From: Escherichia coli
GTDB lineage: Bacteria > Pseudomonadota > Gammaproteobacteria > Enterobacterales > Enterobacteriaceae
Direction: 5' to 3' (one strand)
Length of the DNA stretch: 64,000 nucleotides
NCBI RefSeq assembly: GCF_030013205.1
Contig: NZ_CP122648.1
Shown: piece by piece, positions 34,407 through 49,857 of the stretch
How the letters are laid out: every line of letters begins with the position of its first letter
Position numbering within the stretch: the stretch's first letter is position 1
Made by a program: the position numbers and the translations under genes
The notes under the pieces: model-generated
Database searches by the model: none
What the model saw: only the letters and a program-made list of their open reading frames with translations
Told to the model about the DNA's origin: nothing

Positions 34407-36208
34407 AAAACGCCCCGAATTTAAAATATCAGCCGAAGGATAAATTCACTGAGGTAATCATTTTTGCCGGGACGGATGCTTACGCCCATGCTCAACACTG
34501 GATTGAAAGCGAAGGACGAAAACACGGCGATAACGTACCACCTGTTTACCTGGGGCCGAAGCAACTGGCAGACCTGGCGAACATCCGCATTATCGACGAA
34601 GGGCGCCGCTTTGCGCGTGTCTATATCGCAGGGGAGATCGAACCAATTCAGATCAACGCTATCGCCGAAAAGCTGGCACTGGCTGGCGTACAGGAGGCGA
34701 AATTATACAAAGGCATCACCGACCGGGAGCCGGAGAACTGGCGCGATTACCTGCAACGGATCCGCGAACAGGCAGAGCGCGGGGAAGTTTCAGCGATGAA
34801 ATTAGTCACAAAAAATAGTGACCTACCCAGGCCAGCACTAAATCAGATGGGAGCCAGCCAGAGAGGGGAAGTATTGCTTGAATATTATGGAAGGGCACTG
34901 GCTATAAATGACGATTCTGATGTAGTTCACCATTACAACGGAATTGTCTGGGAGCCTGTATCTGATAAGGAACTCCAGCGGTCTATGGCGAAGATTTTTA
35001 TTGATGCTGGAATCAGTTATTCGCAAAACGCCATTAAATTTGCCGTAGACACAATGAAATTGAGCCTGCCTGTTATGGGCGGGGCAGACAGGAATCTTAT
35101 TGGATTCAGTAACGGGGTATTTGATACCCGGACAGGAAATTTTCGGGAGCATAACAAAAATGACTGGTTGTTAAATGCCAGTGAATTACCGTTCAGCCCA
35201 CCAGCAGAGGGGGAAACGCTGGCAACACATGCGCCGAATTTCTGGAAGTGGCTGCGTCGTTCGGTGGCAAATAACGATCGTAAAGCGGATCGCGTACTGG
35301 CGGCATTATTCATGGTACTGGCGAACCGGTACGACTGGCAGTTATTCCTTGAGGTAACGGGGCCGGGCGGAAGCGGTAAAAGTGTGATGGCGGAGATTTG
35401 TACCATGCTGGCGGGTAAGGCCAATACAGTATCGGCGAGCATGAAGGCGCTGGAAGACGCGAGGGAACGAGCGTTAGTGGTGGGATATTCTCTGATTATC
35501 ATGCCTGACATGACCCGCTACGCAGGTGATGGTGCTGGGATTAAGGCCATTACAGGCGGTGACAAGGTGGCAATCGACCCGAAACATAAAGCCCCCTACT
35601 CCACACGTATTCCGGCGGTAGTGCTGGCAGTAAACAATAACGCCATGTCATTCAGTGATCGCAGTGGAGGGATCTCGCGTCGTAGGGTGATATTTAATTT
35701 CTCTGAGGTCGTACCGGAGAACGAACGCGATCCCATGCTGGTGGAAAAAATAGAAGGCGAACTGGCGGTAGTGATTCGCCATTTGCTTACACGATTTGCC
35801 GACCAGGACGAAGCGAAAAGACTACTTTATGAGCAGCAAAAATCAGAAGAAGCACTGTTAATAAAGCGTGAAGGTGATTCGCTGGTGGACTTCTGCGGTT
35901 ATCTGATGTCGTTGGTTAAATGTGAGGGGATGATAGTAGGTAATGCAGAAATAGTGCCATTTAGCCCGAGGCGATATCTGTATCATGCTTATTTGGCTTA
36001 TATGTCTGCGCATGGTCTGGGAAAACCGGTATCACTGACACGCTTTGGTACAGATATGCCAGGGGCAATGGCTGAGTACGGAAAGGAGTACAAGCGGGCT
36101 AAATGCACTAAAGGTCCAGATAAAGGGCGAACGATCACAAATGTTCTGTTAGATAAAGATGCTGATGGATGGTTACCAGCAGCGGCAGGCATTAACGACA
36201 GAACATGA
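34403..36208 (+). CDS. P4-alpha/D5-type primase-helicase (replication initiator)
   Basis: 601 aa. It has Walker A VTGPGGSGKS and Walker B-like LIIMPD. The overall layout matches the phage/plasmid primase P4-family C-terminal domain. Confidence 0.8.
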   Translation: MKNAPNLKYQPKDKFTEVIIFAGTDAYAHAQHWIESEGRKHGDNVPPVYLGPKQLADLANIRIIDEGRRFARVYIAGEIEPIQINAIAEKLALAGVQEAKLYKGITDREPENWRDYLQRIREQAERGEVSAMKLVTKNSDLPRPALNQMGASQRGEVLLEYYGRALAINDDSDVVHHYNGIVWEPVSDKELQRSMAKIFIDAGISYSQNAIKFAVDTMKLSLPVMGGADRNLIGFSNGVFDTRTGNFREHNKNDWLLNASELPFSPPAEGETLATHAPNFWKWLRRSVANNDRKADRVLAALFMVLANRYDWQLFLEVTGPGGSGKSVMAEICTMLAGKANTVSASMKALEDARERALVVGYSLIIMPDMTRYAGDGAGIKAITGGDKVAIDPKHKAPYSTRIPAVVLAVNNNAMSFSDRSGGISRRRVIFNFSEVVPENERDPMLVEKIEGELAVVIRHLLTRFADQDEAKRLLYEQQKSEEALLIKREGDSLVDFCGYLMSLVKCEGMIVGNAEIVPFSPRRYLYHAYLAYMSAHGLGKPVSLTRFGTDMPGAMAEYGKEYKRAKCTKGPDKGRTITNVLLDKDADGWLPAAAGINDRT

Positions 36209-36236
36209 TACGAAATTTATAAGTTGAAACTTAAAA

Positions 36237-36575
36237 GTAGACGGTTGGTAGACAGATACACTTAACCCTCTACCAACCATCTACTAATTAATGTTTTGAA
36301 TTATATAGGTATTTTTAATGTGGTAGAGAGGTGGGCAGTTATTTCTATATTCCTAAACCACGGGGGGTATATAAAAAAACAGATAGTTAAGGGTTCATTT
36401 TTTAAATTTCTCTTTTAACTGTCTACACTGTCTACCATTTAGTAAAAATCATTAATTATCAATGTATTAATGCGGTAGACAGTTAGTAGACAGTTTGCAG
36501 ATTGTTTTTTTGTTATGAGTTAATAACATTAAATAAATCAATCAATTATATCGGTAGACAGTTGGTAGACAGTTG
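36237..36575. repeat. iteron-type replication origin (GGTAGACAGTT repeats flanking an AT-rich core)
   Basis: Copies are GTAGACGGTTGGTAGACAGA (36237-56); inverted copies CTCTACCAACCATCTAC (36269-85) and CTGTCTACACTGTCTACC (36419-36); GCGGTAGACAGTTAGTAGACAGTT (36472-95); and TCGGTAGACAGTTGGTAGACAGTT (36552-75). The field lies directly downstream of the primase gene. Confidence 0.8.
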
Positions 36576-36580
36576 TAACG

Positions 36581-37123
36581 ATGGGGCAAAGCATGACTAA
36601 GCTGACCATTAACAGAAAACCGAAAGGCATTTATGGCACGCCGCAGAAAACGACGCAGGCGGCACAGGAGCAGGATAAAACCACGTCGGCGCATAAAGTG
36701 ATGCCCGGTAACCAGAAAGCGCAGCAGAAGCCCACAGGGGCGACACCGTGGCGGCATATGACCAAGCGCCAGCGCAAAAACCGCAGGCGCATTAACCGCC
36801 TCACTGAGTTGTGGCCTGAATTATTCAGCCGGGAAGCACCGAAGCCGCTTAAGGTGGGGATATTCGACGACCTGATGCAGGATCTCGCCGTCAGGGGGCT
36901 GGCATTCGGTCCAGGGGCATTGCGTGCGACGCTGGCATCTTATGCACAGTGTCCGCGCTATTACCGCGCCTTAATGGCTGGTGGGGTACGCTACGACCTG
37001 AAAGGCCAGCCGTGCGGCGAGGTGACACCACAGGAACAACAGGACGCAGAAACGCGGCTGGTGGCGCTGAATGAGAAGCGCAAACGTCAGCGCCGGGTAG
37101 CAAAGGAGAAAACAGGCGCATGA
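36581..37123 (+). CDS. ProQ/FinO-domain RNA-binding protein
   Basis: 180 aa. The segment LWPELFSREAPKPLKVGIFDDLMQD..LRATLASYAQCPRYYRALMAGGVRYDLKGQPCGEV parallels the ProQ/FinO fold consensus (PLKIGI..L..AL..Y......Y......G..R.DL.G...G.V). Confidence 0.8.
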   Translation: MGQSMTKLTINRKPKGIYGTPQKTTQAAQEQDKTTSAHKVMPGNQKAQQKPTGATPWRHMTKRQRKNRRRINRLTELWPELFSREAPKPLKVGIFDDLMQDLAVRGLAFGPGALRATLASYAQCPRYYRALMAGGVRYDLKGQPCGEVTPQEQQDAETRLVALNEKRKRQRRVAKEKTGA

Positions 37124-37407
37124 TTCACGACAGCAAAGCGGAAGCACTGGAAGCGCGTGGTCTGTACCGGAGAGCGGCGGCGCGGTGGGCTGAGGTCATC
37201 ATGCTGGCGAATGATGACAAGGCACGGGAACAGGCGGCAAAACGTCGCGCGGAATGTATCCGCAAGGCAGCACGCCCACCAGCACGGCAGGATAATTTCG
37301 GGGAGATGCGCGAAACCATCAGCCGGGCACATGCCGGGATGGGATTACATCAGCCCAATGGTAAGGCATTCAGGAAATACCCTGGATCGAAAAATTGCAG
37401 TCAGTGA
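37120..37407 (+). CDS. PerC-family transcriptional regulator
   Basis: 95 aa. AEALEARGLYRRAAARWAEVIM...RRAECIRKAARPP matches the PerC/Pch signature as I remember it. ATGA overlap with the previous gene. Confidence 0.65.
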   Translation: MIHDSKAEALEARGLYRRAAARWAEVIMLANDDKAREQAAKRRAECIRKAARPPARQDNFGEMRETISRAHAGMGLHQPNGKAFRKYPGSKNCSQ

Positions 37408-37602
37408 CGGAGGCCGGGATTTTTCCCGGCTTTTTTGTGCCAGTAAAAAGCCCGCAGCCAGAAGTGTTGCGGGCTTTGTTTTTCAGGTGATTGAAGTCAA
37501 TGGGAAGAACGCGATCATCATGCGTTATTGTTTCATAAATTGCAATGATGTAGATCGTCATTTCAGTTTGTGCAATCATAATCGTTGTTTTGTTCAGGAG
37601 AT

Positions 37603-37782
37603 ATGACTATGAGAAAAGCCAGCGTGAAACCTGTTTTACTCGCTCGTGATCAGATTGAAGCATTACAGCGCATCCAGGACGAGGAACGCCGCAATTCTCC
37701 GCTGGGGATTGCTCCGAGCATTCATGAGGTCGCCCGGCGTTTAATGCAGCGGGCGCTTTATCCCGTAGAACGTCCGGCCTGA
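37603..37782 (+). CDS. small hypothetical protein (about 57-59 aa; start 37603 or 37609)
   Basis: ORF 37585..37782. GGAG precedes the ATGs. The product MTMRKASVKPVLLARDQIEALQRIQDEERRN.. is possibly RHH-like. Confidence 0.45.
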   Translation: MTMRKASVKPVLLARDQIEALQRIQDEERRNSPLGIAPSIHEVARRLMQRALYPVERPA

Positions 37783-37821
37783 TGGTCGTGATTTTTTGGT
37801 GAAAAAAGAGAGGTGGTAAAA

Positions 37822-38400
37822 ATGCCAGCAAGCAAAGAAGATTTGCGATTAAAACTGATGGAGGTGGTTAACGCTCTGTCAGAGTCGCAGGGCAGCACTC
37901 CGCAGGAGATTATCGAAATTCTGAATGCGATCCCCGCACAGGATTTCATAAAAGAGGATAACGCTAATCAAAACATCGTCGCGTCAGTCGAAGATGAATC
38001 CTCACTGGCAGAAGCCCAGGCCAAAGCGGATTCCGCATACAGCAATATGGGCCGTCGAGCTCCGGCCCCGTTTGCTGGTGAAAAGTCGATGGATTACCGC
38101 AAGCGTGCATTAATTGGCGCACAGAAGCTGGCTAAAAAATTCAGTGATGTGGATATTCGTTCCGTTTCAGATTCTGCAACGCTGGCGGTGCTGGAAGATC
38201 AGATTTACAAGGCTGCTCAGGAAAGTGCTCAGTGGGCCGTGGAAAACACGCCGGGTTATTTGACTAAAAAAGTCAGGATGGATGAAGCCGGGCGCCGGAT
38301 TACTGAATATCAGGGGGATCCGAATAACTGGCTTAGTGCTTTCAAAATCCCTCCCCGTCGCCTGGTCAAAATTAACGTTGCAAGCCTCGCGGGGGCATGA
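37822..38400 (+). CDS. hypothetical protein (192 aa), first gene of the morphogenesis-like block
   Basis: ORF 37813..38400. The ATG at 37822 follows GAGGTGG. The protein is helical and acidic, with no motif recognised. Confidence 0.55.
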   Translation: MPASKEDLRLKLMEVVNALSESQGSTPQEIIEILNAIPAQDFIKEDNANQNIVASVEDESSLAEAQAKADSAYSNMGRRAPAPFAGEKSMDYRKRALIGAQKLAKKFSDVDIRSVSDSATLAVLEDQIYKAAQESAQWAVENTPGYLTKKVRMDEAGRRITEYQGDPNNWLSAFKIPPRRLVKINVASLAGA

Positions 38401-38464
38401 AAAACGTGCTGATTTCAGCCCTGCCGGATTTGGCGGGGCTTATTGATTATAACCGGGTGACATT

Positions 38465-39148
38465 ATGCTTTTAACAGAAATTGAGGCGGCAAAGCAGATT
38501 CGGGACGGTCAGCTACCGTCGCCTTATCAGTTCTCCAACATGTGGCTGGTTAACCTGCGTATTACAGGGACTGGCATGGCCTACCGCGCCGAAGAAAAAG
38601 AATTTGTCTGGCGTTCACCGCAAACTTATCTCAATCCGCAGTTCCTGGAACGTTGCGCCGGAGTACCCGTCATTATCGACCATCCCGAAGGCAAAACCAT
38701 TGAAGACGTTGGCGAACGGTCGCGCATTATTGGCACCGTCATGTTGCCGTATATTCGCGGTGACGAGGTGTGGGGTGTATGCCGGATTTACGGGCAGGAA
38801 ATCATCGATTACATCCAGAAAGCACGGGGGGAGGTATCCACCAGCCCGTCGGTTGTGTTTTGTGGTGCGTCCGGTGGGGCAGAAGTTCCTGATGTAATGG
38901 GCGAGGACAATTTTTTCATTGAGGGTACGCCATTTCTTATCGATCACGTTGCGCTCGTACCGTTGGGCGTATGGGATAAGGGCGGGAAACCATCAGGTGT
39001 GGAAGTAACAACGCCGACAGAAGAAGAACAGCTCGCCGGAATGGTCCGTGAAGTTATTGATGCGGCCTGCAAGCCAGCTCTGGAAAAACTGGAAGAAATA
39101 TCCGGGCGGCTGGATCAACTGGAAAAAAACAGAGTGAGTGAATCATGA
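38465..39148 (+). CDS. hypothetical phage-structural-module protein (227 aa), in the slot usually held by a major tail protein
   Basis: It lies directly upstream of the chaperone-like and tape-measure-like genes, and its stop overlaps the next start. The function is inferred from position only. Confidence 0.4.
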   Translation: MLLTEIEAAKQIRDGQLPSPYQFSNMWLVNLRITGTGMAYRAEEKEFVWRSPQTYLNPQFLERCAGVPVIIDHPEGKTIEDVGERSRIIGTVMLPYIRGDEVWGVCRIYGQEIIDYIQKARGEVSTSPSVVFCGASGGAEVPDVMGEDNFFIEGTPFLIDHVALVPLGVWDKGGKPSGVEVTTPTEEEQLAGMVREVIDAACKPALEKLEEISGRLDQLEKNRVSES

Positions 39149-39762
39149 AAATTGCTAAAAACTTAAATCTGATTATCCCTGTGCGCACTGAAAAGGGTAA
39201 TGGCTGGCTCCATGCCACGCCGATCAGCAAAGAGGTGTTTAAAGAGCATTTCTTCATCCTGAGTAAAACCTTTTCTGCCATTTTTTCTGAAGGTCTTGGT
39301 GTTGTTGCGGGTCCGCGCGTTGCCTGCCTTATGCTGGAGAAAATCTCCCGTGACTCCGGTTTATGGGATGGGGAGAAAGGCATACGTAATACGCTCATAA
39401 ACGAAATTATTCGCCTGGCAAACCTTGTTTATCCAGTGGAGGGCAAAGGCTACGACACAATCCCTCTCGATATGGCGCTGGAGCGTGAAATCGTTGATTT
39501 GGACGAAGTGGCGGGTGAACTTGTTTTTTTTACATGCGTCTCGTCGATAAATTCCCCGGAGCAGACGAAGGGGACTATGGATGCGGTGAATGGAATATGG
39601 AGCACTCAATGCTCGTCCTTGAGTCTTACGGAATGGATCGATTCATTGCCGACATTGAAGCCTGCCGTCAGTTCTGGCGCGACGGCGAACACGTCATCAG
39701 CGACATCCTCGACTACTCAGCCGGAGCCGGATTCAGAGACATCTGTGCAGATTCCGGTCTGA
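39145..39762 (+). CDS. tail-assembly-chaperone-like protein (G-like, 0 frame)
   Basis: 205-aa ORF immediately upstream of the tape-measure-like gene. It contains the slip site T TTT TTT at codons 127-129. The 0-frame tail after the slip site is S/T-rich and low-complexity. Confidence 0.5.
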   Translation: MKIAKNLNLIIPVRTEKGNGWLHATPISKEVFKEHFFILSKTFSAIFSEGLGVVAGPRVACLMLEKISRDSGLWDGEKGIRNTLINEIIRLANLVYPVEGKGYDTIPLDMALEREIVDLDEVAGELVFFTCVSSINSPEQTKGTMDAVNGIWSTQCSSLSLTEWIDSLPTLKPAVSSGATANTSSATSSTTQPEPDSETSVQIPV

Positions 39763-39827
39763 ATGTAAAAACAGCAGCTCAGTTTCGTGAGCTGCTCAAA
39801 TTCAAAAATCCCGCAGGAGTATTGTAA
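39525..39827 (+). other. putative -1 programmed frameshift site (39525-39531) plus T-like extension frame
   Basis: The T8 run at 39524-39531 gives the heptamer T TTT TTT in the 0 frame. The -1 frame is open from there to 39827 (..YMRLVDKFPGADEGDYGCGEW..FKNPAGVL). It ends in TAATG, overlapping the ATG of the tape-measure-like gene. Confidence 0.55.
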
Positions 39828-41866
39828 TGTCAGGTAATCAGATGCCAGTTCTGACGCTGGACGTTAATGAAGAACACCTCAAACGGCTTGAGGCAATTTT
39901 TGAAAAGTATCGCAACGGGCTGATGATCGGCCCTGCCGGAACGCCGATGAAAATACCGGGGCAAAGTGGGCGCAGCGTGGGGGCAGGCTTACCCGTGGCG
40001 GCAAAATCTGGTCGGACAGGACCGGATGTATCCGGGAGAGTGAGGGACGAAAAAGGGCGCTTTGTCGGCAGCGGAAAAACAGCAGATTCGTTCGTAAGCA
40101 ACTATAAAGGTCGCGGCGAAACGATGTTTGATAAGTATCTCAGCGGGCTGGGGAAAAATGCCCAACAGACGCTGAAAACTTACAAGCAGATCAATTCTAC
40201 ACTACAGACGACCACTTCAAGATTAAACAACCTGTTTAAAACAACCGTATCGTGGGGAACAAAACTCTCGGTTATGGGCGTTGCCGGACCGTTTGGCTTT
40301 GGCATGATGTCCCGTAGTGTTGTAGAGAAACAGAAAAATGCAGATGAGCTGGTGGCAACGCCAGGAGAGTTAAAGGCGGCAGAAAGCACTTATTCGCCTT
40401 ATTTTTCCGGTGTTGGCAATGTGCTCAATACACTGGCAGCAGCACAAAATGATATATCGCATCCTGCCCGCGTCGGCCTGCTTAATCTGGGGCTAAATCC
40501 TGATAAAAACGCGACTGAAAACCTGCCTGTATTCCTGAAAAAGGTTGCAGAGCTGGCAAAGGAATATCAGGGAAGTGGTCTTACCCAGAGCATGCTCAGG
40601 GGAAGAGGGCTTGGATGGGTAAATTTTGGTCTTACTAACCAGTTAGTCAAATATCAGGACAAAATACCTGAACTCAACAAAGAGTTTTCGTTACGTGCAG
40701 CGCAGAATGATTCGTTACTGACCTCTGCACATACAAGTAAATATCAGAATATTACCAGTAACCTGGAAAAAAACTGGGATCGGCTTACCAGCGGATTTCA
40801 GGGAGCAATGGCGGGGAATGAAGACGCTTTAATCAGAATGTCTGATGGTGCCACGAATGCTGCCCTGAATTTCATGAATGGTGAGAACTTTAAAAGGATT
40901 CTGACGGATGTAGAAACGGGGCTGGATAAACTTGGTAAGTACGTAAATGGCCCGGATTTTAATAACGACCTGAACAATTTTGCCGAAAACGTTGCAAAGG
41001 TTGTTAAGGCACTTAGCGGGTTTGTTGGTTTTGCGGTTGAACATCCCTGGCTTTTTGGGGCCGCAGTACTTGCTGGACCATCGAGAGTTGGTGCTGTGGC
41101 AGCCACAACGACCGGAGTTGCCGCCCGTGTTGTTGGTGGAAGTCTTCTTGGGGCTACAGCCGGAACAGTAGCTGGATTGGCTATTCCTACAAATGACACA
41201 CCTACCACCAGTGAGGAAATGAAAGGGCTGGAGGGGCGTTTCAACTTTGATTATTTTAACGAAGTGCAGGAGTGGCAAAAAAACAATCCGGGTAAGGTCT
41301 GGCCTGGAGGATTGCAGGGATTTTCAAATCAAGTAAACAGATCTGCATATTTATCCAGAGGGATCAGGAATAACAATCCCGGAAATCTTAATTTCGCAGG
41401 ACAAAAAGGGGCTACCCTGGAATCGGGGCCAAATGCCCGTTTTGCCAGCTTCCCGACGATGCTGGAAGGCATTGCCGCCTTAGATCGGCAGGTAATGCTA
41501 TACCTGAAACGCGGCAAAAATACGATTGATCAGATTATTGATATTTATGCCCCTTCATCTGATGGAAATAACACATCGTCCTATAAAAGCTATCTCTCTC
41601 AGTACACCGGATTAGGTGTTAAGGAGAAAATCGATGGTTCTAATTTTGAGGTCATGAAAAAGCTAATTCAGGGCATTATTAACCATGAAAATGGTGCTGC
41701 CGCTAAAGCTGTAAGTGTTGAAGATGTGATCCGGGCGCTGGCTATGAATCGTGGGATTGTCCCTGCAGCAGGAAACAATGATCAGAACGTTAAGTTGGAA
41801 ATTGTTCGGAACGCTGGTGCCGATTACTTCGCGCAACTAATTGGTGCTCAACGGTTCCTGGGATGA
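39827..41866 (+). CDS. tape-measure-like protein (679 aa)
   Basis: It has a long helical N-terminal part, then a Gly/Ala-rich hydrophobic segment (FGAAVLAGPSRVGAVAATTTGVAARVVGGSLLGATAGTVAGLAIP). The C-terminal globular domain carries RNNNPGNLNF. The gene follows the chaperone-like gene. Confidence 0.55.
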   Translation: MSGNQMPVLTLDVNEEHLKRLEAIFEKYRNGLMIGPAGTPMKIPGQSGRSVGAGLPVAAKSGRTGPDVSGRVRDEKGRFVGSGKTADSFVSNYKGRGETMFDKYLSGLGKNAQQTLKTYKQINSTLQTTTSRLNNLFKTTVSWGTKLSVMGVAGPFGFGMMSRSVVEKQKNADELVATPGELKAAESTYSPYFSGVGNVLNTLAAAQNDISHPARVGLLNLGLNPDKNATENLPVFLKKVAELAKEYQGSGLTQSMLRGRGLGWVNFGLTNQLVKYQDKIPELNKEFSLRAAQNDSLLTSAHTSKYQNITSNLEKNWDRLTSGFQGAMAGNEDALIRMSDGATNAALNFMNGENFKRILTDVETGLDKLGKYVNGPDFNNDLNNFAENVAKVVKALSGFVGFAVEHPWLFGAAVLAGPSRVGAVAATTTGVAARVVGGSLLGATAGTVAGLAIPTNDTPTTSEEMKGLEGRFNFDYFNEVQEWQKNNPGKVWPGGLQGFSNQVNRSAYLSRGIRNNNPGNLNFAGQKGATLESGPNARFASFPTMLEGIAALDRQVMLYLKRGKNTIDQIIDIYAPSSDGNNTSSYKSYLSQYTGLGVKEKIDGSNFEVMKKLIQGIINHENGAAAKAVSVEDVIRALAMNRGIVPAAGNNDQNVKLEIVRNAGADYFAQLIGAQRFLG

Positions 41867-41917
41867 TTTAAATACACGCGCTTTCCGGCGCATTAATACA
41901 GTCTGAGGGGAAGTGTC

Positions 41918-42445
41918 ATGTTTATGAGCAAGGCAGAATATGCCAAACACAAAGGCGTAAGCCGCCAGACAGTTTACGACTGGATCGAGAAAGGCGAAGT
42001 GATCATGTCTGGCAAAAAAATTGATGTGGAAGCGACAGAGCAGCGGAACAGCCCACCAGCACAGGGAAAAGATACCGTTTCTGAAATGTGGCCAGAGAGA
42101 ACGCTGGAAATGACGTGGGGCGAGTTCTGGAAAGCAGTTAAGGCCAGAGACGGTAAAATCCCTGCACCAGTAACGGACAATGACATACAGCAGCGTGTAC
42201 AGGATGCAGCCGGGGAACTATGCTGTGAAGTGCAATTTCTTGATGATGGTGCTATCTGCCTTGAGGATTATGCTGGGCAATATTACTTTGAGCAGTATGA
42301 TTTTCGGGAAAATGCCAGGCTGGCAATTCGTATGCTGCGTTGTGAGCTCTGCTATGTTGCAGGTGATTGTCCCGATGAGCTGGATAACTGGAGTGAAGCC
42401 GGACTAAACGCCCTGGCTGAGTGGGAAAAATCAGGCCATCAATGA
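41918..42445 (+). CDS. Nu1/TerS-like winged-HTH protein (175 aa)
   Basis: The N-terminus MSKAEYAKHKGVSRQTVYDWIEKGEV resembles lambda Nu1-type small terminase HTH domains. A repeat field lies immediately downstream. Confidence 0.5.
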   Translation: MFMSKAEYAKHKGVSRQTVYDWIEKGEVIMSGKKIDVEATEQRNSPPAQGKDTVSEMWPERTLEMTWGEFWKAVKARDGKIPAPVTDNDIQQRVQDAAGELCCEVQFLDDGAICLEDYAGQYYFEQYDFRENARLAIRMLRCELCYVAGDCPDELDNWSEAGLNALAEWEKSGHQ

Positions 42446-42450
42446 CCTCA

Positions 42451-42732
42451 AAAAGTGTCAAGTTGAGCAGCTTGCCAGGTTGACACTTTACACTCTGAAC
42501 GCGAAAAAGTGTCAACCTCGCTGTAAGCCCCGCCATTACTGGCCTTTCGCCAGATTTACCACGTCAAAAAGCCGAAAAAATCGCGAAAAGTGTCAAGTTG
42601 CCATGCTTAGAAATGCTAAGGTTTGATAAGGTTTTTCGCGAAAAAGTGTCAAGTGTGTCAACCTGCGATGTTAAGATTTGTTAAGGTCTTAAGCCGGAAA
42701 GTGTCAACCAGCCCCCTAAGATTTCCTAAGGT
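42451..42732. repeat. repeat field: at least 6 copies of AAAGTGTCAA(C/G) interleaved with TAAG..TAAGGT repeats (candidate cosB/pac-like or second origin)
   Basis: AAAGTGTCAA copies lie at 42451-62, 42479-91 (inverted), 42503-17, 42585-600, 42641-62 (double) and 42686-700. Three carry the extended form CGCGAAAAAGTGTCAA. The second family reads CTTAGAAATGCTAAGGTTTGATAAGGT, GTTAAGATTTGTTAAGGT and CCTAAGATTTCCTAAGGT. Confidence 0.75.
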
Positions 42733-42739
42733 GTAAACC

Positions 42740-42919
42740 ATGACCATCACCGAAGCCGATTTGCTGGAGATGATCCGCAGCATTGCCGGAATCAAACAAC
42801 CAGCAAGCAAAATTAACAGGTGTTCAGCGCCTGTTTCCGTTGTGCTGCAGCAGGAACGCCACCAGCATGATGATGTGAGGCCGTATCAGTGGCGGAAACC
42901 GGACAGGCCGCGACGGTGA
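42740..42919 (+). CDS. possible small ORF (59 aa)
   Basis: Unlisted ORF MTITEADLLEMIRSIAGIKQPASKINRC.. It starts just after the repeat field. No motif and only a weak RBS, so it may be a gene remnant. Confidence 0.25.
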   Translation: MTITEADLLEMIRSIAGIKQPASKINRCSAPVSVVLQQERHQHDDVRPYQWRKPDRPRR

Positions 42920-43211
42920 GCGGAACGTTCGGTAAGGCTACAGCCAAGCCAAACATTAAGCCTACGGGTAACCCTTCGAAGGGGCTTTAAAGGGGAGATG
43001 ATTATCCTTACCAGTTGATAAACAAGCAAACCTCAAATTTGAGGTTTGTATCTGCCTGACTTATTTTTGTGCTAAGTTGTTGATATATCCGACGACACAA
43101 ATTTGCGTTCTGTGGCTGGTGGTGGCGAGTTACGACCGATCATTTCCTTCCTGGCAGGTTACATCCTGCTGCTCAACTACTACGGTAGCCACTACGATTA
43201 ACTACGCGATG

Positions 43212-43240
43212 CCGATATGGGGATTCCCATATCGGTTTAT
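43212..43240 (+). terminator. intrinsic terminator
   Basis: Perfect 10-bp stem CCGATATGGG/CCCATATCGG with loop GATT, followed by TTTAT. Confidence 0.6.
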
Positions 43241-43306
43241 CCGTGATCATCCACCAGCTTGATCACGGTTAACAGGGGATGTGTAATCCCCAAGCGAGTG
43301 ATAAAT

Positions 43307-43336
43307 GTGTATAGAAATGTGTATAGAATTTATTTT
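43307..43336 (+). repeat. arm-type repeat GTGTATAGAAATGTGTATAGAATTTATTTT (partner of 29271-29307)
   Basis: See the partner feature. It lies 50 bp left of the second att core. Confidence 0.6.
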
Positions 43337-43385
43337 AGAACTCGCGAATGCGCCTTTATTACTGGCCTTGTGGCTTGTTGTATTG

Positions 43386-43403
43386 TTCCCTTCGCCCGCT
43401 CCA
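43386..43403 (+). repeat. att core copy 2: TTCCCTTCGCCCGCTCCA (18-bp direct repeat of the glyU 3' end)
   Basis: Exact match to 29138-29155. Confidence 0.9.
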
Positions 43404-43900
43404 GAATCTCCCCAGGTGGAGAAGACTAAAAAAGTCTTCTCTGTCAGCAACTTAAACAGTTACCTATTTAATTTGCTTAGGAGTTCTACCATTGTGATCC
43501 GCCCTTAGTAACTGTCACGTTAAGTTACTCGGTGAGATGACAGTATAACCTAACGTTGGCGGCAGTTGCACCTCTCACACCGCGATAGCACAACGTGAAG
43601 ATAAAGCCCATCCTGGCATTGTAATGTCATCGACAGACTGAACACACGCATTTAAGCCCGATGTGCGGCCTTGTGGCTGCGTAAACAGGTTTATGGTGAT
43701 ATTGGTCCTTGCAAACCATATGCAAGCTCTATCAGCGTTTCAGCCACGCTCCCAACGGGTACACGGTTATCCTGATAAGGTGTGATCTTTCTGACAATCT
43801 GATGAAGTCGCTACGCTCCCGCTTGTTGCTGTATCACCAACGGGGCTTTATGGTTTCTATTGTCTATAATAATCTCACAATTCCCCTGCATGAGGTTGAT

Positions 43901-44107
43901 ATGACTGTTAGCTACAAGATTACTTATGAGCATAGAGACGGTGATCAAATTAGAATGGAAGAGGTTTTATTCCATTCAGAGCATGAACCAACAAAAGATG
44001 AAATTCATGATGCAGTAAGAAAAGATACTGTGAGATTTAATTCTCCATCTAATGGAGTAACGGCTGTTTCAGGGTTTAAAGTGATTTCGGTTGTCCCTGT
44101 TCCATGA
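43901..44107 (+). CDS. hypothetical protein (68 aa)
   Basis: The internal ATG of ORF 43709..44107 is preceded by GAGG (tgaggttgatATG). Product begins MTVSYKITYEHRDGDQIRMEE... Confidence 0.45.
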   Translation: MTVSYKITYEHRDGDQIRMEEVLFHSEHEPTKDEIHDAVRKDTVRFNSPSNGVTAVSGFKVISVVPVP

Positions 44108-44140
44108 ATGGTTATAGAAGGGGCTGGAAGCCCCTAATTA

Positions 44141-44461
44141 TTACTTCTTAATATCGCCAGTGCATTGATATTCGATAGTCACAAGTGTTTGCATACAACC
44201 AGATGAAGAAGGTTGTGAACATTGAGAAGTGAATCCACCAAAAGGCTCGGCTCCTGAATATCCCCAAGCGGCACAACGCGCTTTGGCTGCATTCATGCCT
44301 TGTTGTGGATCTACAACAGGACTTTCAAACATACCGTAAGAATAACTCATCCTAACTGTGCCGTCTGATTTGCTTCCACCAGTTGGAACGAGTTGTTTTT
44401 TTGTTGCACATCCAGAAATAATCAATGTTGAAGCAAGTAACAGCATTAAACTTTTGCGCAT
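44141..44461 (-). CDS. small lipoprotein (YecR-like by recollection)
   Basis: 106 aa. The signal peptide and lipobox read MRKSLMLLLASTLIISGC. The mature part contains four Cys. Confidence 0.65.
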   Translation of the reverse strand: MRKSLMLLLASTLIISGCATKKQLVPTGGSKSDGTVRMSYSYGMFESPVVDPQQGMNAAKARCAAWGYSGAEPFGGFTSQCSQPSSSGCMQTLVTIEYQCTGDIKK

Positions 44462-44605
44462 GTAAATAATCCCAAGAGATAATGGTTATGTATTGATTTA
44501 AAGCGTTTTTAGATTAATGCATTAACTTAGCAAAATTAAGTCTTTTCTGATTGTTTGCAGAGTAAAAATGAGTTGCTTTCGAAATTATTTCGGATGTTTA
44601 TTGTA

Positions 44606-44773
44606 TTACGGTTTTTCAAACCGTCTAACTATTGTCGCTATTGAATGGGCAATAATAGCAAGAGGATTCATTTCGTCATTGGAGGCAACAAAAAGTCGGT
44701 AACTGATAGCTACAACGAATGAAACAATAACGAGAAAGCGGATAGTGCTAAGATGTTTTGAAGATAAATGCAT
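44606..44773 (-). CDS. possible 55-aa hydrophobic peptide
   Basis: Unlisted ORF MHLSSKHLSTIRFLVIVSFVVAISYRLFVASNDEMNPLAIIAHSIATIVRRFEKP. No clear RBS. Confidence 0.25.
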   Translation of the reverse strand: MHLSSKHLSTIRFLVIVSFVVAISYRLFVASNDEMNPLAIIAHSIATIVRRFEKP

Positions 44774-45113
44774 AACGCCCCCTAAATGAATGTGAGGGGG
44801 ATTAAATCATGCAAATTTGTTGTGTGCAATACTGGTAATTTATCCTAATAGTCTACTATTCACCTCAATCTACGTCAACCAATATTTGATGTAGATTTGA
44901 TTTTCTTTTAAAAACAATATGTTGCAATTTGTTGGGTTTTGGGGTTAGGTTGTTTTTTGGACGTTTCCATCAAGTGTAAAGATACGTTTAGCCTTCATAG
45001 TGAGTTCAGTTACTGTCTTTTTCTCTGAAATCGGCGCATACGTGATCATCGCTTAACGAGAAGATCAGCGCCGTCAGGTCCATGCAGCGACAATTCTGAA
45101 ATATCAGGAGGCA

Positions 45114-45665
45114 TTACGCTTCCTGCTCTTTCTTGATACGTTGCACCGTCTGTGTGCTGACACTGAAATCTTTTGCTACGCTCCGAATTGATCCACCATT
45201 CGCGAGAGCGGCAACAATTCCCGCTCGATCAATTGCTTTTCCATTACCACGTTTTGCTATACGCCCAGCTGCCTTAGCTGCGGCGATCCCTTCACGTTGA
45301 CGCTCAAGCATCATTTCACGTTCCATTTGTGCCACTGCTGCAAGCACTGTGAGCATCATATTCCCTGCGGGAGAGTTCTTCCCTGTCTTAAAGTCTTCTT
45401 TATGGAAATGCACAGACACGCCGCGCTCTGTTAATTGCTCAACCGTTGCCAGAAGGTCGGCTGTATTACGGCAAAGGCGATCAATACTGTGAACATGCAA
45501 AACATCACCTTCCCGCACATAGTTCATCATTGCCTCAAACTGTGGGCGCTGGGTATTCTTGCCTGACGCTTTATCTTCAAAGACTTTATCAAGAGCTACT
45601 CCAGCTAATTGACGGTCTGTGTTTTGTTGCACAGTCGATACCCTAATGTATCCAATATTAGCCAT
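45114..45665 (-). CDS. serine recombinase (resolvase/invertase family)
   Basis: 183 aa. The N-terminus MANIGYIRVSTVQQNTDRQ contains the catalytic Ser. It also has the DRLCRN motif and a C-terminal HTH (GGSIRSVAKDFSVSTQTVQRI). Confidence 0.9.
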   Translation of the reverse strand: MANIGYIRVSTVQQNTDRQLAGVALDKVFEDKASGKNTQRPQFEAMMNYVREGDVLHVHSIDRLCRNTADLLATVEQLTERGVSVHFHKEDFKTGKNSPAGNMMLTVLAAVAQMEREMMLERQREGIAAAKAAGRIAKRGNGKAIDRAGIVAALANGGSIRSVAKDFSVSTQTVQRIKKEQEA

Positions 45666-45680
45666 TTTCTTTATTCCTTC

Positions 45681-45798
45681 TGTGTTGATTTGTGTGTAGT
45701 GATTATTGATCGTGTTGATTAGGTGTGTAAAGGACTTTTTTCACTACGAAATTCGAAGGTTTTTAGTGTGGTGATTTAGCCTGCTTTATCACTACACG
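45681..45798. promoter_or_regulatory. res-like nested imperfect inverted repeats upstream of the recombinase gene
   Basis: TGTGTAGTGAT (45693-703) pairs with ATCACTACACG (45788-98). TCACTACGAA (45741-50) pairs with TAGTGTGGTGA (45765-75). There are also direct repeats TGTGTTGATT / CGTGTTGATT. Confidence 0.45.
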
Positions 45799-46166
45799 TC
45801 TTGCATGAGAATCATGTAGTTACGTTTTGGTAAAATTAGCAAGCTATTAAATAGTGTGTTTATTTTGAAAAAATAATTTTTTGTTGCATTAAAGAAAACT
45901 TGTTCGACAAATAATAGATTGATTTTTAATCAATAATTTCTGATAGTGCTCTGTAAGCCGCATTACACAAGGCTTTGCGAAAGTGATGTAAAAGTGAAGA
46001 AAGTAAGAATTGCACTTTTAAGCTACTTTTCATTGAATTTTTAGTATGGAATTACACAGGGATTAATCATCAATTACATTGAATTTAAGCCTGTTTTAGA
46101 TGTTTAATTTTGGTAGCAAGAAACACTTTTAGAAGATCATTGCACAGATGTTATGTGATAAATGGA

Positions 46167-46325
46167 TGTAACGATGGGTTACATTCAGCTATCTGAAATA
46201 CTCTCTGTAAGAAATTTGGTAGTAACGATTCGTTACATAGACTAATTATTGAATGTAACGATATTACACATCGGTAGTAACGATACGTTACATCGGCAGA
46301 TGATTGGTTGTAACGAAAGGTTACA
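46167..46325. repeat. array of five phased 17-bp palindromes (T/A)GTAACGA-N3-(G/C)GTTACA
   Basis: Boxes: TGTAACGATGGGTTACA (46167-83), AGTAACGATTCGTTACA (46221-37), TGTAACGATATTACACA (46254-70), AGTAACGATACGTTACA (46276-92) and TGTAACGAAAGGTTACA (46309-25). Centre spacings are 54, 33, 22 and 33 bp. The T-type and A-type boxes alternate. Confidence 0.8.
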
Positions 46326-46414
46326 CAATAAGACTAACATCTATAATACTAATAATAAAACTAACTATTAAACTATATAATATAATTCTTTTTTATCTTT
46401 ATAAGAATAATTAT

Positions 46415-46775
46415 AGGGATACCCGTTAGGGAGTCTAACGACTATCCCTTAATCTATTGGCATTCGCCAGAACCTTGCACAAGTTAGAGTGTTAGTCGTT
46501 AGACTGCTTGTCATAACACATAGTTTTTGTTTGTTGATGTTAGTTAGTAGATCTATGTTCGCTTTCCGCTCACAACGAATATGTAATCTACTATGTGCAA
46601 ATAGCCTACGGCTTGCGTAAGGCTAAATAGTCTTGCGCTGTGCGCAGAACGATAATTAACTAACTACCATCTAACGATCATCAATCATCTAAAATAAATT
46701 TCTTGTGCAATGTTCTTGCGAATGCAATTAGGGTAGCGTTACCCCTTTGGGGATGCTAACGCATAACTATAGATC
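46415..46775. repeat. pair of ~75-bp imperfect inverted repeats flanking a ~200-bp segment
   Basis: The left arm (46415-46492) ends in ..TTGGCATTCGCCAGAACCTTGCACAAG. The right arm (46700-46775) has a reverse complement ending in ..ATTGCATTCGCAAGAACATTGCACAAG. Each arm also contains an internal GTTAG/CTAAC-type hairpin. Confidence 0.7.
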
Positions 46776-47206
46776 AACCATCAAACAGACAAAAAAGAAA
46801 AATATGGTTTAAAGATGTTAGGTAGTAGATGAGTTTCTACCGCTTAAATCAAGCCGTAGGCGAGCTAAACGTATATAAGGTAGGGAAACACTTAGCGGTA
46901 ATAGATTAGCTCGTTATAGAGATTCTGAGGAGCTTTACAGGTATTTTATAAGGTGTCTGAAATTAGATTTTATCTACCATCACCTTTTCATATACCTAAC
47001 AAATACAAAATAAGCACCTTAAATAAGCCTCTGGCGAGCTAAACGGTCATTACATAAGGGAATGTATTGTTTTTATCAAAACCTCGTTAGAACGCGTTTT
47101 AGAGCGTTATTAGACAATAATGAAGAATAGCACTACACAGGAGAGCACGAATTGCTAAGACAAATTATAAATTGCTGAAATAGATCGGATTTTTTGCAAA
47201 ATGGTA

Positions 47207-47235
47207 TTGACAAATGTCTCTTTCTGTGCAATAAT
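47207..47235 (+). promoter_or_regulatory. sigma70 promoter P1 (TTGACA-17-AATAAT with TGc extended -10)
   Basis: TTGACA at 47207-12, a 17-nt spacer ending in TGC, and AATAAT at 47230-35. It reads toward the 47358 operon. Confidence 0.65.
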
Positions 47236-47287
47236 AGGTATTAGAGGGACAGAAAACATTCTTATCCTCTAAGTAATTAAACCAATG

Positions 47288-47331
47288 CACCGCACTTTGA
47301 GCCGTCAGGCTGCAAGGTGTCTTTTTCTTTT
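47288..47331 (+). terminator. leader terminator/attenuator between P1 and the first gene
   Basis: CACCGCA..GCCgtcaGGC..TGCAAGGTG composite stem followed by TCTTTTTCTTTT. It lies 26 nt before the ATG at 47358. Confidence 0.5.
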
Positions 47332-47357
47332 AACCAAATAGAATAGGAGGTTAATTA

Positions 47358-47540
47358 ATGAAATATTTCACTCCACAGGATGTAGTAGAAGCCTGGAAAC
47401 GTGGTGAGATCAATCGTTTTAAAGTAAGGATGAACAGGAACACAGCGCGACGCTGTGGTTATCCAGAGCGTGAAAAATGTTTTGACGATGCACTAAAAAT
47501 TATTGATGAACTGCGTAAGGCAGAAGTAGAGAAAGAATAA
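47358..47540 (+). CDS. hypothetical protein (60 aa)
   Basis: Strong RBS (AGGAGGttaattaATG). No motif. Confidence 0.6.
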   Translation: MKYFTPQDVVEAWKRGEINRFKVRMNRNTARRCGYPEREKCFDDALKIIDELRKAEVEKE

Positions 47541-47561
47541 TAACAGGAGAAGGAGAAAACT

Positions 47562-47729
47562 ATGAGCGAAACTAAGAAACCAATTCCGCGCACTTACCTA
47601 CACGTTGACCCTGAAATCTTCAAGGTTTTATTTGCTGAAGCCAAGAAAAGGCAAATTATGGTCAGTGATTTGATGTTAGAAATCATTACTGAAGCAGCAG
47701 AGAACATCAAACAAAAAAAGGGTAAGTGA
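47562..47729 (+). CDS. ribbon-helix-helix (CopG-like) protein, 55 aa
   Basis: Unlisted ORF MSETKKPIPRTYLHVDPEIFKVLFAEAKKRQIMVSDLMLEIITEAAENIKQKKGK with RBS GGAGAAGGAG. It shows a beta-strand then helix-helix pattern. Confidence 0.6.
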   Translation: MSETKKPIPRTYLHVDPEIFKVLFAEAKKRQIMVSDLMLEIITEAAENIKQKKGK

Positions 47730-47782
47730 TCCTCATTCACTTTAGTAGCGCATTAAGCGTGATTTATAAGGAGATAATTCTA

Positions 47783-48463
47783 ATGTCTAAAATTAAATTG
47801 ATTCGTGAAAAATACCAGTATGTTGATAAACAAACAGGAGAAATTAAAGACAGAACTTTGAATATACCACACTACTTTTGTGAGATTGAATTCATCTACT
47901 CCTCAAATATTGAGGATGGAAAAGCGAAGTTTAGTGCAGAAATGCAAAAATTATATTGCTATGTTTCAGATTGGGAGAAATCAGGGGGGATATGTTTTGA
48001 AACACAAACGAAGTTAAGTAAAGTTTGTGGCTGTAGCCGTAAGACAGTTAATGAATTGATTGGTCTTATGATTAAAATCGGTCTTTTAGAAGAGGTCGGA
48101 GAACGAATCCCAAAACGTCCTTTAAAATTACGTGCGCTACTTCTCACAGATGCACATATTACTCCCCCTGGAGAATCATCACTACCTGATCCTTCTGAGA
48201 AAGAAGACGAATCTAATGAAATATTGAATGTTTCCGAAATCATCCTTGAAGAAGAAACACAAGAGCCAGAGTTCCCTGAGCGGCCCGAAATTTTTACTTG
48301 GCTTCTTTCCCTTGATAAGAAGAAACCACCGCACGAAGAAACAGAAGATTTTGTAAAACGTGCATTAGATTCAAAGAATATCTATCTTGAGAAACAGGCT
48401 TTTCACGATCTGATAATATCTCTAAGAGAAAAAAGTGAAATATACGATTCAATACCATTCTAA
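47783..48463 (+). CDS. winged-HTH protein (226 aa), candidate replication initiator/regulator with acidic C-terminal half
   Basis: The internal ATG of ORF 47726..48463 follows AAGGAG. The HTH-like segment is TQTKLSKVCGCSRKTVNELIGLMIKIGLLEE. Confidence 0.5.
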   Translation: MSKIKLIREKYQYVDKQTGEIKDRTLNIPHYFCEIEFIYSSNIEDGKAKFSAEMQKLYCYVSDWEKSGGICFETQTKLSKVCGCSRKTVNELIGLMIKIGLLEEVGERIPKRPLKLRALLLTDAHITPPGESSLPDPSEKEDESNEILNVSEIILEEETQEPEFPERPEIFTWLLSLDKKKPPHEETEDFVKRALDSKNIYLEKQAFHDLIISLREKSEIYDSIPF

Positions 48464-48472
48464 GGAGAATAA

Positions 48473-48742
48473 ATGACTTATAACATCACTATAGGAAACA
48501 AAACTATTGAAATAACTGAAAGCGGATACAACATTTTAAAAGCTATTTTGGAAATAGAGTTCTCACCGCCGACAGTGGTTAGCTTTTGTAGTTTAGGCGG
48601 CTACAGCGCACAACACGTGAATCATTGGTTAAACCATTTTACATCGTTCGGTGTGCTGGATTATGAAGGGATTAACAGCACTACATTTCGTCTTTTGAAA
48701 TTAAACAAAGATTTTGAATTGTTTATCACAAACAATCAATAA
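48473..48742 (+). CDS. hypothetical protein (89 aa), possible wHTH
   Basis: RBS AAGGAG upstream. No firm motif. Confidence 0.5.
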   Translation: MTYNITIGNKTIEITESGYNILKAILEIEFSPPTVVSFCSLGGYSAQHVNHWLNHFTSFGVLDYEGINSTTFRLLKLNKDFELFITNNQ

Positions 48743-48838
48743 CAACAGATCGGGCAATACATATGGCAAATGCATTTATGGCGATATTCATTGTAACAAT
48801 GGTATCAAGTTTTTATAATCCACATAAAAAGAGGGAAA

Positions 48839-49222
48839 ATGGGAAGAAAGAAAAAGAACAACTTAAAACGTATTGAAAAAAACAGTAACTTCAATTCAAC
48901 AAGACAACGTCCACCGACACACACCAATAACGAAATTCCAGGGGAAGAGATAATATTTATTCTTGAAACAGAATCCCCTGAATTAAGCGATGAAGAATTA
49001 GAAATAATCCAGTCAATGCCAGGCGTTTACTTTCGCCCAAGAACAAGAAAACAAACTATCATTTCTGATGGCACTCTGAAACGTTGGCAGCTTTTAGGGT
49101 TTAGCTCCTATCATCATTTTTTGGGATTTAACGCTTTCAATAATTGTGTAGGTGGTGCATCGGAAGTCGATCTGATGGCTCATTTAGAAGATACATTAGC
49201 TTCTAACAAACGTTCTAACTAA
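48839..49222 (+). CDS. hypothetical basic/acidic protein (127 aa)
   Basis: RBS GAGGGAAA upstream. The N-terminus is Lys/Arg-rich. Confidence 0.5.
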   Translation: MGRKKKNNLKRIEKNSNFNSTRQRPPTHTNNEIPGEEIIFILETESPELSDEELEIIQSMPGVYFRPRTRKQTIISDGTLKRWQLLGFSSYHHFLGFNAFNNCVGGASEVDLMAHLEDTLASNKRSN

Positions 49223-49237
49223 TAAAATGATGGGAGT

Positions 49238-49815: not shown

Positions 49816-49828
49816 TAATGAAAATCAT

Positions 49829-49857
49829 TTGCATTTATAACGATTTCATTATATAAT
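49829..49857 (+). promoter_or_regulatory. near-consensus sigma70 promoter P2 (TTGCAT-17-TATAAT)
   Basis: TTGCAT at 49829-34, a 17-nt spacer, and TATAAT at 49852-57. The initial transcribed sequence ATTAGGGGTAGATAAAAA resembles that of P1 (ATTAGAGGGACAGAAAA). Confidence 0.7.

Follow-up and report, generated by a model that had tools for sequence, protein, structure and literature searches.

Near the right end of a 14.2-kb element integrated in the chromosome of the porcine Escherichia coli strain ETEC4079 lies a two-part locus that, we propose, forms the packaging-specificity ("address") module of a Gram-negative satellite of the phage-inducible chromosomal island (PICI) type. The locus consists of a plus-strand gene for a two-domain protein of 175 aa (41918–42445, start MFMSKAEYAKHKGVSRQTVYDWIEKGEV), here called type A, and an array of repeats in the 294-bp gap between its stop codon and the next open reading frame (ORF; array 42446–42739). 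Coordinates refer to the window, the whole 64-kb stretch of DNA that was analyzed, which matches the ETEC4079 chromosome with 100% identity. We put the probability of the packaging role at roughly one half; it is the best supported of the readings considered, and the evidence for it is comparative. At the same even odds, the module would represent a new form of the redirection of helper packaging that is known from other satellites.

The gap contains seven boxes with a GTGTCAA core, six of which are exact copies of AAAGTGTCAA: five on the plus strand (at 42452, 42506, 42587, 42643, and 42698) and one on the minus strand (42480–42489). A single further exact copy is present elsewhere in the window. 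Relaxing the word to the 7-mer GTGT[C/A]AA adds 42655 (GTGTCAA), 42487 on the minus strand, and 42731; 9 of the 17 copies in the window fall within 280 bp, against an expectation of ~0.07 at the density of the window as a whole. Interspersed with the boxes are three dyads of the form TAAGNNTTNNTAAGGT (TAAG-N6-TAAGGT) at 42617, 42672, and 42717 (0.29 expected, and no shuffle reached three), and a fourth, inverted dyad, CTTAG-N5-CTAAG, lies at 42606–42620. The original prediction for this stretch, a 175-aa protein with a Nu1-type or small terminase subunit (TerS)-type helix-turn-helix (HTH) followed by at least six boxes interleaved with TAAG dyads, is thus borne out by the six exact AAAGTGTCAA and three TAAGNNTTNNTAAGGT copies in 294 bp and by the protein profile match described below. 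It had also counted three extended units; two of these are exact copies of CGCGAAAAAGTGTCAA (42500 and 42637), and the third (42582) turns out to be one A shorter.

These elements are arranged as a left arm, a core, and a right arm. The left arm is a convergent inverted pair, AAAGTGTCAA-N18-TTGACACTTT (42452–42489), with an overlapping degenerate TTTACAC at 42487, and this inverted first pair is kept in other genera with spacers of 18–38 bp. A third box on the plus strand, in the extended form CGCGAAAAAGTGTCAA (42500–42515), is followed by a non-box core, GCTGTAAGCCCCGCCATTACTGGCCTTTCGCCAGATT (42520–42556), in which GCCATTACTGG (42532–42542) is embedded in the order GCTGTAAGCCCC-GCCATTACTGG-CCTTTCGCCAG. 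In lineages whose proteins are only 50–59% identical, the core motif GCC(A/G)TT(A/T)CTGG is again found between the arms; some other lineages lack it. The right arm is built from three plus-strand composite units of ~55 bp, each comprising a box, 8–9 bp, and two 5-mers 10 bp apart: unit 1 (42582–42636) reads CGCGAAAAGTGTCAA, 9 bp, CTTAG-N5-CTAAGGT and TAAGGTTTGATAAGGT; unit 2 (42637–42692) has CGCGAAAAAGTGTCAA overlapping the second GTGTCAA at 42655, then 9 bp and TTAAGATTTGTTAAGGT; and unit 3 (42693–42739) has GGAAAGTGTCAA, 8 bp, and CTAAGATTTCCTAAGGT, with GTGTAAA at 42731. At the end of unit 3, the last TAAGGTG is also the ribosome-binding site for the ORF that follows. The TTAAG-type dyads keep a constant offset of 8–9 bp from each right-arm box, and their 5-mers drift by lineage (TTAAG, TTGAG, TTAGC, and TTATG); they may be intrinsic bends, or sites for the C-terminal domain of the type A protein or for a helper or host partner. 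Integration host factor (IHF) was discarded as their ligand, given that the array contains only one weak, single-mismatch match to the IHF consensus. A structured RNA was likewise rejected: no Rfam family was found in the array, and its fold z-score of −3 is accounted for by the inverted boxes.

Gene and array are strictly coupled. Among 57 distinct type A loci, whose protein products are 36–100% identical and come from at least 10 genera of Enterobacterales (including Escherichia, Pantoea, Rouxiella, Raoultella, Buttiauxella, and Lelliottia), 56 carry two to nine boxes no more than 340 bp after the stop codon. An alignment of 43 boxes gives the extended consensus (A)AAAGTGT[C/A]AA[C/G][C/T]. 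Starting from the DNA, an HTH gene with the SRQ-type recognition helix adjoins the inverted pair AAAGTGTCAA-N10-40-TTGACACTTT in 54 of 67 IMG/VR contigs that contain it; most of the others are unrelated AT-rich phages or have a lone pair attributable to chance. The mean pairwise nucleotide difference among 32 distinct E. coli-type elements is 0.05–0.15 in the gene, 0.163 at third codon positions, and 0.075–0.087 over 42446–42636, and it rises to 0.47 immediately upstream of the gene and to 0.51 in the small ORF that follows the array. The array diverges less than the third codon positions, so this non-coding DNA is under the stronger constraint, and gene and array, a conserved block between mosaic flanks, move as a cassette. 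Nothing is conserved upstream of type A genes, and the cargo ahead of the cassette ranges from none through protease only, or protease plus tape measure, to baseplate proteins and other genes. A box-like GAAGTGTCATG at the gene start, considered as an operator, turned out to be a feature of a single cargo junction, with no conservation. Clusters of AAGTGT[C/A]AA were also seen in AT-rich, apparently non-enterobacterial viral contigs, with up to 15 copies in 430 bp (L046:11679–11905, L060:1029–1255, and L048:403–796 and 3937–4366); no SRQ-type HTH gene was detected near them, and they may belong to an unrelated system with a similar word.

The type A protein has 53 homologues, every one of them from Enterobacterales and none with a functional name. 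An AlphaFold2 model displays two confident domains (mean pLDDT 88.6): a winged HTH formed by residues 1–42 (41918–42043, plus strand), which is Nu1/Xis/MerR-like and has the recognition helix VSRQTVYDW, and an orphan C-terminal alpha/beta domain of residues ~58–175 (42089–42445, plus strand; pLDDT >90). Conservation follows the same division, with residues 1–41 almost invariant, 42–57 a variable linker, and 58–175 moderately conserved. The top PHROG for the protein is phrog_57, the Nu1 family, and the match covers residues 1–42 only. The experimentally validated RppA likewise matches phrog_57 over residues 7–47 alone (E = 3.9e-8), whereas the Nu1-type TerS of the PICI EcCIIHE3034 matches over its full length (residues 1–174, E = 3e-53) and also matches PF07471. 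Since its match is confined to the head, as in RppA, the type A protein behaves like Rpp, with a Nu1-type head on an unrelated body.

Despite this resemblance, we class type A as neither an Rpp nor a Nu1 family member, because the sequence homology and cos features that define those families were looked for and are absent. No match to PF07471 (Phage_Nu1) was found, nor homology to Nu1 over the full length, which would take in the regions for self-assembly and TerL binding, and neither the protein nor its family profile matched 6HLK or 6HN7 among PDB sequences, which leaves it without sequence homology to RppA, RppB, or RppC. The head itself fits both an N-terminal winged HTH of Nu1 type and the Xis-type winged HTH fold. 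For the C-terminal domain, structure comparison gave no convincing fold neighbor, and a mere 20 relatives were recovered from 1.84 billion representative proteins. A profile match to the TMPRSS2 SRCR domain (E = 0.004) is weak and was judged spurious. Among 72,556 plasmids in PLSDB, the protein is all but absent (one marginal match), and a plasmid origin of the module was ruled out on this ground. One protein that seemed to join AntA to the C-terminal domain by domain shuffling (P0048, 226 aa, on 19 E. coli contigs) is instead an internal-deletion remnant: it consists of the first 137 aa of the satellite AntA and the last 90 aa of type A, left joined when a deletion took out all that lay between their genes.

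A second protein family, type B, is found next to the same AAAGTGTCAA boxes. Type B proteins (MSLMSVSQYAKHAGMSRQALY.W...) are different proteins of 186–209 aa; when compared with type A by hhalign, only the first 43 columns align (E = 1.8e-11), and the C-terminal parts are unrelated. No better evidence is available that the head would read the box than this pairing of the SRQ helix with GTGTCAA in two proteins that are otherwise unrelated. The type B array lies upstream of its gene, an array-then-gene order that is also that of cosB and Nu1 in lambda and of cos1 and rppA in the PICI EcCICFT073. Type B is widespread, occurring in Yersinia, Pectobacterium, Serratia, Klebsiella, E. coli, Morganella, and Salmonella (for example, contigs L063:8667–9500 and L104:9710–10588, as well as L040, L068, L071, L088, L092, and L095). 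In E. coli, too, it is found toward the right side of an island resembling a PICI, with its array ~2 kb from the island end. The ORF that follows type B (63 aa) belongs to the terminal small-ORF family discussed below. Type B genes are often preceded by two paralogous genes (about 235–275 and 160–205 aa), and in some Yersinia-type contigs type B is positioned between tail-fiber-assembly and tail-sheath genes in a myophage-like region.

The element that carries the type A module spans 29156–43404 and is inserted at tRNA-Gly(CCC) (29082–29155), which is followed by its integrase gene. attL (29133–29156) is the tRNA-Gly end, and attR (43382–43404, plus strand) is a partial, 16-nt repeat of the tRNA 3′ end. 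All genes run in one orientation, in the order integrase, Rfam int-alpA RNA, AlpA-type HTH, AntA, Icd-like, DUF4222, D5-type primase, ProQ/FinO, PerC, four myophage-derived genes, the 175-aa gene, the array, a 59-aa ORF, a hairpin, and attR. Pfam and RefSeq annotation revealed neither lysis genes nor a complete set of virion genes in the element, and no ORF in it has a terminase domain. This layout is that of the published Gram-negative PICIs (PMC6092414): the size falls within about 10–15 kb, direct repeats bound the element at a dedicated att site that prophages do not use, and integrase, AlpA, primase, and origin share one orientation. We therefore classify the element as a PICI-type satellite, for which helper dependence is predicted, in agreement with the original prediction, which had called it a satellite; integrase, AlpA-type HTH, and primase plus origin at tRNA-Gly are all present.

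Within this backbone, the position of the type A module corresponds to that of known packaging determinants. EcCICFT073 (NC_004431, 1377930–1388654) has the order int, alpA, Icd-like, DUF4222, primase, SSB, PerC, and homologues of capsid and decoration proteins, and it ends with a 144-aa gene between cos1 (GGGCGGCGACCT) and an inverted cos2, followed by a 93-aa ORF. The product of the 144-aa gene is RppA (PDB 6HLK, E = 5e-31). EcCIIHE3034, whose primase is 43% identical to that of our satellite, has the same layout with RppA replaced by a 180-aa Nu1-family TerS (PF07471) flanked by GGGCGGCGACCT cos sites. The 59-aa ORF that follows the type A array (42740–42919, plus strand; ending YQWRKPDRPRR) is homologous to the 93-aa ORFs of both PICIs, with which it shares an MT.TEA..L..IR start and a Y.W[KR]KP.R.RR end. 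From the common backbone and the same terminal ORF, it follows that the type A gene and array stand exactly where those PICIs have their packaging-specificity gene with its cos sites. In a survey of 80 IMG/VR elements with the satellite's primase family, type A is present in 19, a Nu1 TerS in 12, and both in none. Other elements with the small ORF have a DUF1441/phrog_141 TerS or a large terminase subunit (TerL) as the preceding gene. To judge from the sampled elements, this PICI superfamily seems to use the place before the small ORF as its packaging slot. The terminal small-ORF family (59–93 aa, ending Y.W[KR][KR]P..RR) closes PICIs with differing packaging modules, namely Rpp, Nu1 TerS, phrog_141 TerS, TerL, type A, and type B (e.g., L110:17944–18225, L111:22374–22655, L104:10695–10886, and L002:10800–10985, in addition to 42740–42919), and it is a useful landmark for the slot.

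The nature of the head and the place of the array also bear on a regulatory account, in which type A would be a multi-site repressor or activator in the style of Cox, BldC, or Xis, and the array its operator region. Matches of the type A protein to HTH_17/excisionase-type and Cox-like profiles are barely weaker than the TerS match, and in UniRef a Pantoea homologue has, in one record, the name "Repressor". The type B array lies directly upstream of its HTH gene, as in autoregulation, and the type A array ends at the ribosome-binding site of the small ORF, with each box containing TTGACA, the −35 consensus. However, a scan found no sigma-70 promoter-like site in the array, the sequence upstream of type A changes with the cargo and leaves the gene without an operator of its own, and the small ORF downstream is missing from some array-bearing elements (L004). 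A tripartite site of ~290 bp with 7–9 boxes and a core is, moreover, far beyond what an operator needs, and relatives hold packaging genes in the same slot. P2 Cox, phage Xis, and BldC are single-domain proteins of 55–90 aa that bind packed repeats ~10 bp apart at promoters or att arms, whereas type A has an extra domain of 115 aa and an array with ~55-bp spacing that is neither a promoter nor an att arm. We consider a dedicated regulator unlikely, whether it acted on the small ORF at the end of the island, on its own operon, or on the immunity of the satellite. Within the packaging reading, binding to the boxes could well affect transcription as well.

The proximity of the module to attR raises the further question of whether type A is the excisionase (recombination directionality factor) of the satellite and the array an extended attR arm. 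The protein has a weak match to TIGR01764 ("excise"), the module is located at the attR end, and IHF-consensus sites are present between the array and attR (43008–43085). The distances argue otherwise, with the array ending 640 bp from the attR core and, in type B, ~2 kb from the island end, outside an att arm. The same boxes and head are also found where no integrase is near, the satellite already has an AlpA-type gene and an int-alpA RNA motif next to int, and a length of 175 aa with a large extra domain is atypical of such factors. This role therefore seems very improbable.

The original prediction had offered a second iteron origin as an alternative function of the array, and more broadly the array could be an iteron cluster comparable to crr of P4, a centromere, or a site resembling an origin of transfer (oriT) with an accessory protein. 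A repeat array with a dedicated adjacent protein is typical of iterons, centromeres, and oriT, the arrangement of direct and inverted repeats around a core resembles oriT layouts, and P4 has two iteron clusters. The satellite, however, has a different iteron origin right after its primase. This region (36208–36581; 374 bp, directly after the primase) is AT-rich (GC 0.30–0.33) and has at least 10 GTAGACAG iterons, as GTAGACAG(T) in both orientations, together with two perfect IHF-consensus matches; it is the probable satellite origin, at the canonical position for PICIs. The array, with a GC of 0.45–0.48 against 0.30 there, is not AT-rich. Its boxes remain unchanged whether the element encodes a 601-aa D5 primase, a 772-aa Toprim primase (Pantoea), or no primase, and a replication origin was rejected on these grounds. 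No partition NTPase or relaxase is present in the satellite, and the near absence of the protein from plasmids noted above points the same way. We regard a maintenance function of any of these kinds as highly unlikely. In the Pantoea element, similar GGTAGA iterons are found close to the right end (L002, about 11260–11380).

If the module directs packaging, the terminase that it serves would have to come from a helper, and the cargo gives an indication of its type. Upstream of the module (37813–41866, plus strand) are four homologues of myophage morphogenesis genes of helper type, with counterparts in phages Rac-SA53 and vB_Apl-pPE4. The protease/scaffold gene that is single in the phage (pPE4 gp46) is split here into two ORFs in reversed order, the C-terminal part (37813–38400) preceding the N-terminal DUF2213 part (38465–39148). 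The tail chaperone is 85% identical to its phage homologue, and the 679-aa tape-measure/transglycosylase is 88% identical over 500 aa. Tail and tape-measure genes are unusual in a satellite, and related satellites carry other morphogenesis subsets, baseplate proteins among them. The homology of the cargo suggests a phage of the Rac-SA53/vB_Apl-pPE4 type as the helper. The terminase of these phages consists of a Terminase_2 TerS and a TerL with a T4-type N-terminal domain, and this suggests headful packaging.

Several observations weigh against a packaging role. The TerS of the candidate helper is of the Terminase_2 family and not of Nu1 type, so that mimicry of its DNA-binding domain in the manner of Rpp is not obviously possible. 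The type A protein has no homologue among 50,697 phage genomes, and none of these genomes, Rac-SA53 and vB_Apl-pPE4 included, contains clusters of the boxes. We infer DNA binding by type A from co-occurrence only. Accessory genes also gather at the 3′ end of PICIs, which makes the equivalence of the slot suggestive and no proof; EcCIMP1 has a lipoprotein gene in its 3′-end region. EcCIMP1 was considered as a characterized relative and set aside, as it lacks the type A protein and its gene at the equivalent position is the one for the lipoprotein. Finally, the module persists in decayed islands without integrase and primase. In Enterobacter cloacae (L102/L103, 5372–10585), a divergent type A gene (36% identity) and boxes are found beside proA in an island without integrase or primase that carries a GAPS4-type PDDEXK defense gene; this may be a decayed satellite retained for its cargo.

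The region 42440–43410 has no DNA similarity to any of the 50,697 phages, and no GGGCGGCGACCT-like lambda-type cosN was found in the satellite, nor the adjacent cosN and TerL gene that accompany Nu1. A mimic of a helper cos or pac site was rejected for want of phage DNA similarity, a lambda cosN, and box clusters in Rac-SA53 or vB_Apl-pPE4. As no phage has the boxes and no cosN is present, the candidate site is satellite-specific, like the cosB of EcCICFT073, and would have to be cut by a different mechanism.

Comparison with characterized systems helps to place the module. The Rpp protein and PICI-specific cosB of EcCICFT073 (Fillol-Salom et al. 2019, PMC6739421) belong, like the type A module, to a Gram-negative PICI with the same backbone, in which the penultimate gene, before the same small ORF, encodes a small protein that matches the Nu1 TerS profile only at its N-terminus and continues into an unrelated C-terminal domain. 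In both cases, this protein is encoded after the origin, at the last operon position, and is accompanied by a satellite-specific DNA site absent from the helper, here a candidate site. Rpp proteins form a heterocomplex with the helper TerS, which is thereby steered to the PICI site while the phage is blocked. The type A protein differs in having no sequence similarity to RppA or RppC and a C-terminal domain that is another orphan. Its 290-bp AAAGTGTCAA array has no cosN and lies downstream of the gene, whereas the cosB of EcCICFT073 is next to a lambda-type cosN; the candidate helper TerS differs as noted above. Satellites with their own TerS and pac or cos site, such as the Staphylococcus aureus pathogenicity islands (SaPIs) and PICIs of the EcCIIHE3034 kind, resemble our element in having a recognition subunit of their own (here a candidate one) and a site in the same slot; their proteins are full-length homologues of phage TerS, in contrast to type A, which has no phage homologue.

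Lambda offers a similar comparison. Nu1, at 181 aa close to the 175 aa of type A, has a winged-HTH head of the same profile family (phrog_57), and cosB (R1–R3, I1) likewise comprises several spaced binding sites (predicted ones in our array), including an inverted pair, with bend-prone DNA between them. Unlike Nu1, type A is outside Phage_Nu1 (PF07471) beyond the head and has neither an adjacent TerL gene nor a cosN, and the array has 7–9 sites in place of three and no good IHF site within it. In the pac site of P1 and in pacL-pacC-pacR of SPP1, two clusters of short repeats flank a conserved center over ~200–300 bp, as they do in the array. The repeat sequences and binding proteins of those sites are unrelated to ours, and the core here is only a candidate cut region. 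Overall, the two repeat arms, conserved core, and ~55-bp phasing of the array resemble lambda cosB, P1 pac, and SPP1 pac.

In a mechanism consistent with these features, induction by a helper would lead to transcription of the single rightward operon of the satellite. The Nu1-type winged HTH would then bind the AAAGTGTCAA boxes, with dimeric protein occupying the inverted left pair as well as the three phased units of the right arm, and the 10-bp-phased TTAAG dyads would bend the DNA or recruit a second partner to yield a wrapped nucleoprotein complex around the core. The orphan C-terminal domain would recruit the helper terminase, either TerL directly or the TerS-TerL holoenzyme, such that packaging would begin on satellite concatemers rather than on helper DNA. 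Cutting would probably be headful (pac-like) and not at a cos site, since the element has no cosN of lambda type and its cargo points to a helper with a T4-like TerL. More tentatively, the module could be an unrecognized class of terminase-redirecting adaptor for headful helpers with an unrelated TerS. Such an adaptor might combine a constant address (the SRQ-type head and AAAGTGTCAA boxes) with swappable C-terminal domains, types A and B, for different helper terminases, a division of labor that we offer with similar reserve. It is a comparably speculative idea that the right-arm units are heteromeric, being read in part by the satellite protein and in part by a helper or host partner.

Other features of the element and its surroundings were noted. 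A palindromic hairpin after the last gene (43027–43048) was scored by a scan as a terminator-like site on the minus strand. The int-alpA RNA (RF02996; 30579–30646, 45.5 bits against a gathering score of 35.8) is placed in the gap that separates the integrase gene from the following ORF. A tandem pair of 33-bp repeats (TTACCATCACCCTTAGGGTAGATTTCCTCCCGA; 31533–31598, 94% identical) is situated ~90 bp upstream of the AlpA-type HTH gene (31688–31885) and may form a regulatory site for satellite induction. The tRNA-Gly 3′ end is repeated not only at 43382–43404 but again at 58128–58150, indicating two islands in tandem. The second island (43404–58150) has its own integrase on the minus strand (56822–58042) and contains a serine recombinase, an HTH_36 protein, a major capsid protein (51408–52436), a 607-aa protein, an IS3 insertion, and a baseplate protein; no protein encoded in this island matched the pPE4-type phage. 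A lambda cosN-like GTGCGGCGACCT with one mismatch in this island (51145–51156) may be due to chance.

The packaging of Gram-negative PICIs is known in detail for one solution only, that of Rpp with a lambda-type cos, and many "type C" PICIs, including the experimentally mobile EcCIMP1, have no identifiable packaging determinant (PMC11773190). At least 168 of 5,426 complete E. coli genomes have a member of the lineage that carries the type A module, and the lineage extends to many further genera of Enterobacterales. If the module is indeed a packaging address, it would explain packaging for this entire lineage, and it would show that satellites repeatedly re-use the DNA-binding head of terminase on new scaffolds, as in Rpp, type A, and type B. 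A portable 290-bp site and a single protein would then also be usable for transducible vectors. Islands with the module occur in pig enterotoxigenic (ETEC) and Shiga toxin-producing (STEC) E. coli strains, and, given their variable, helper-derived cargo, their mobility bears on gene flow in pathogens.

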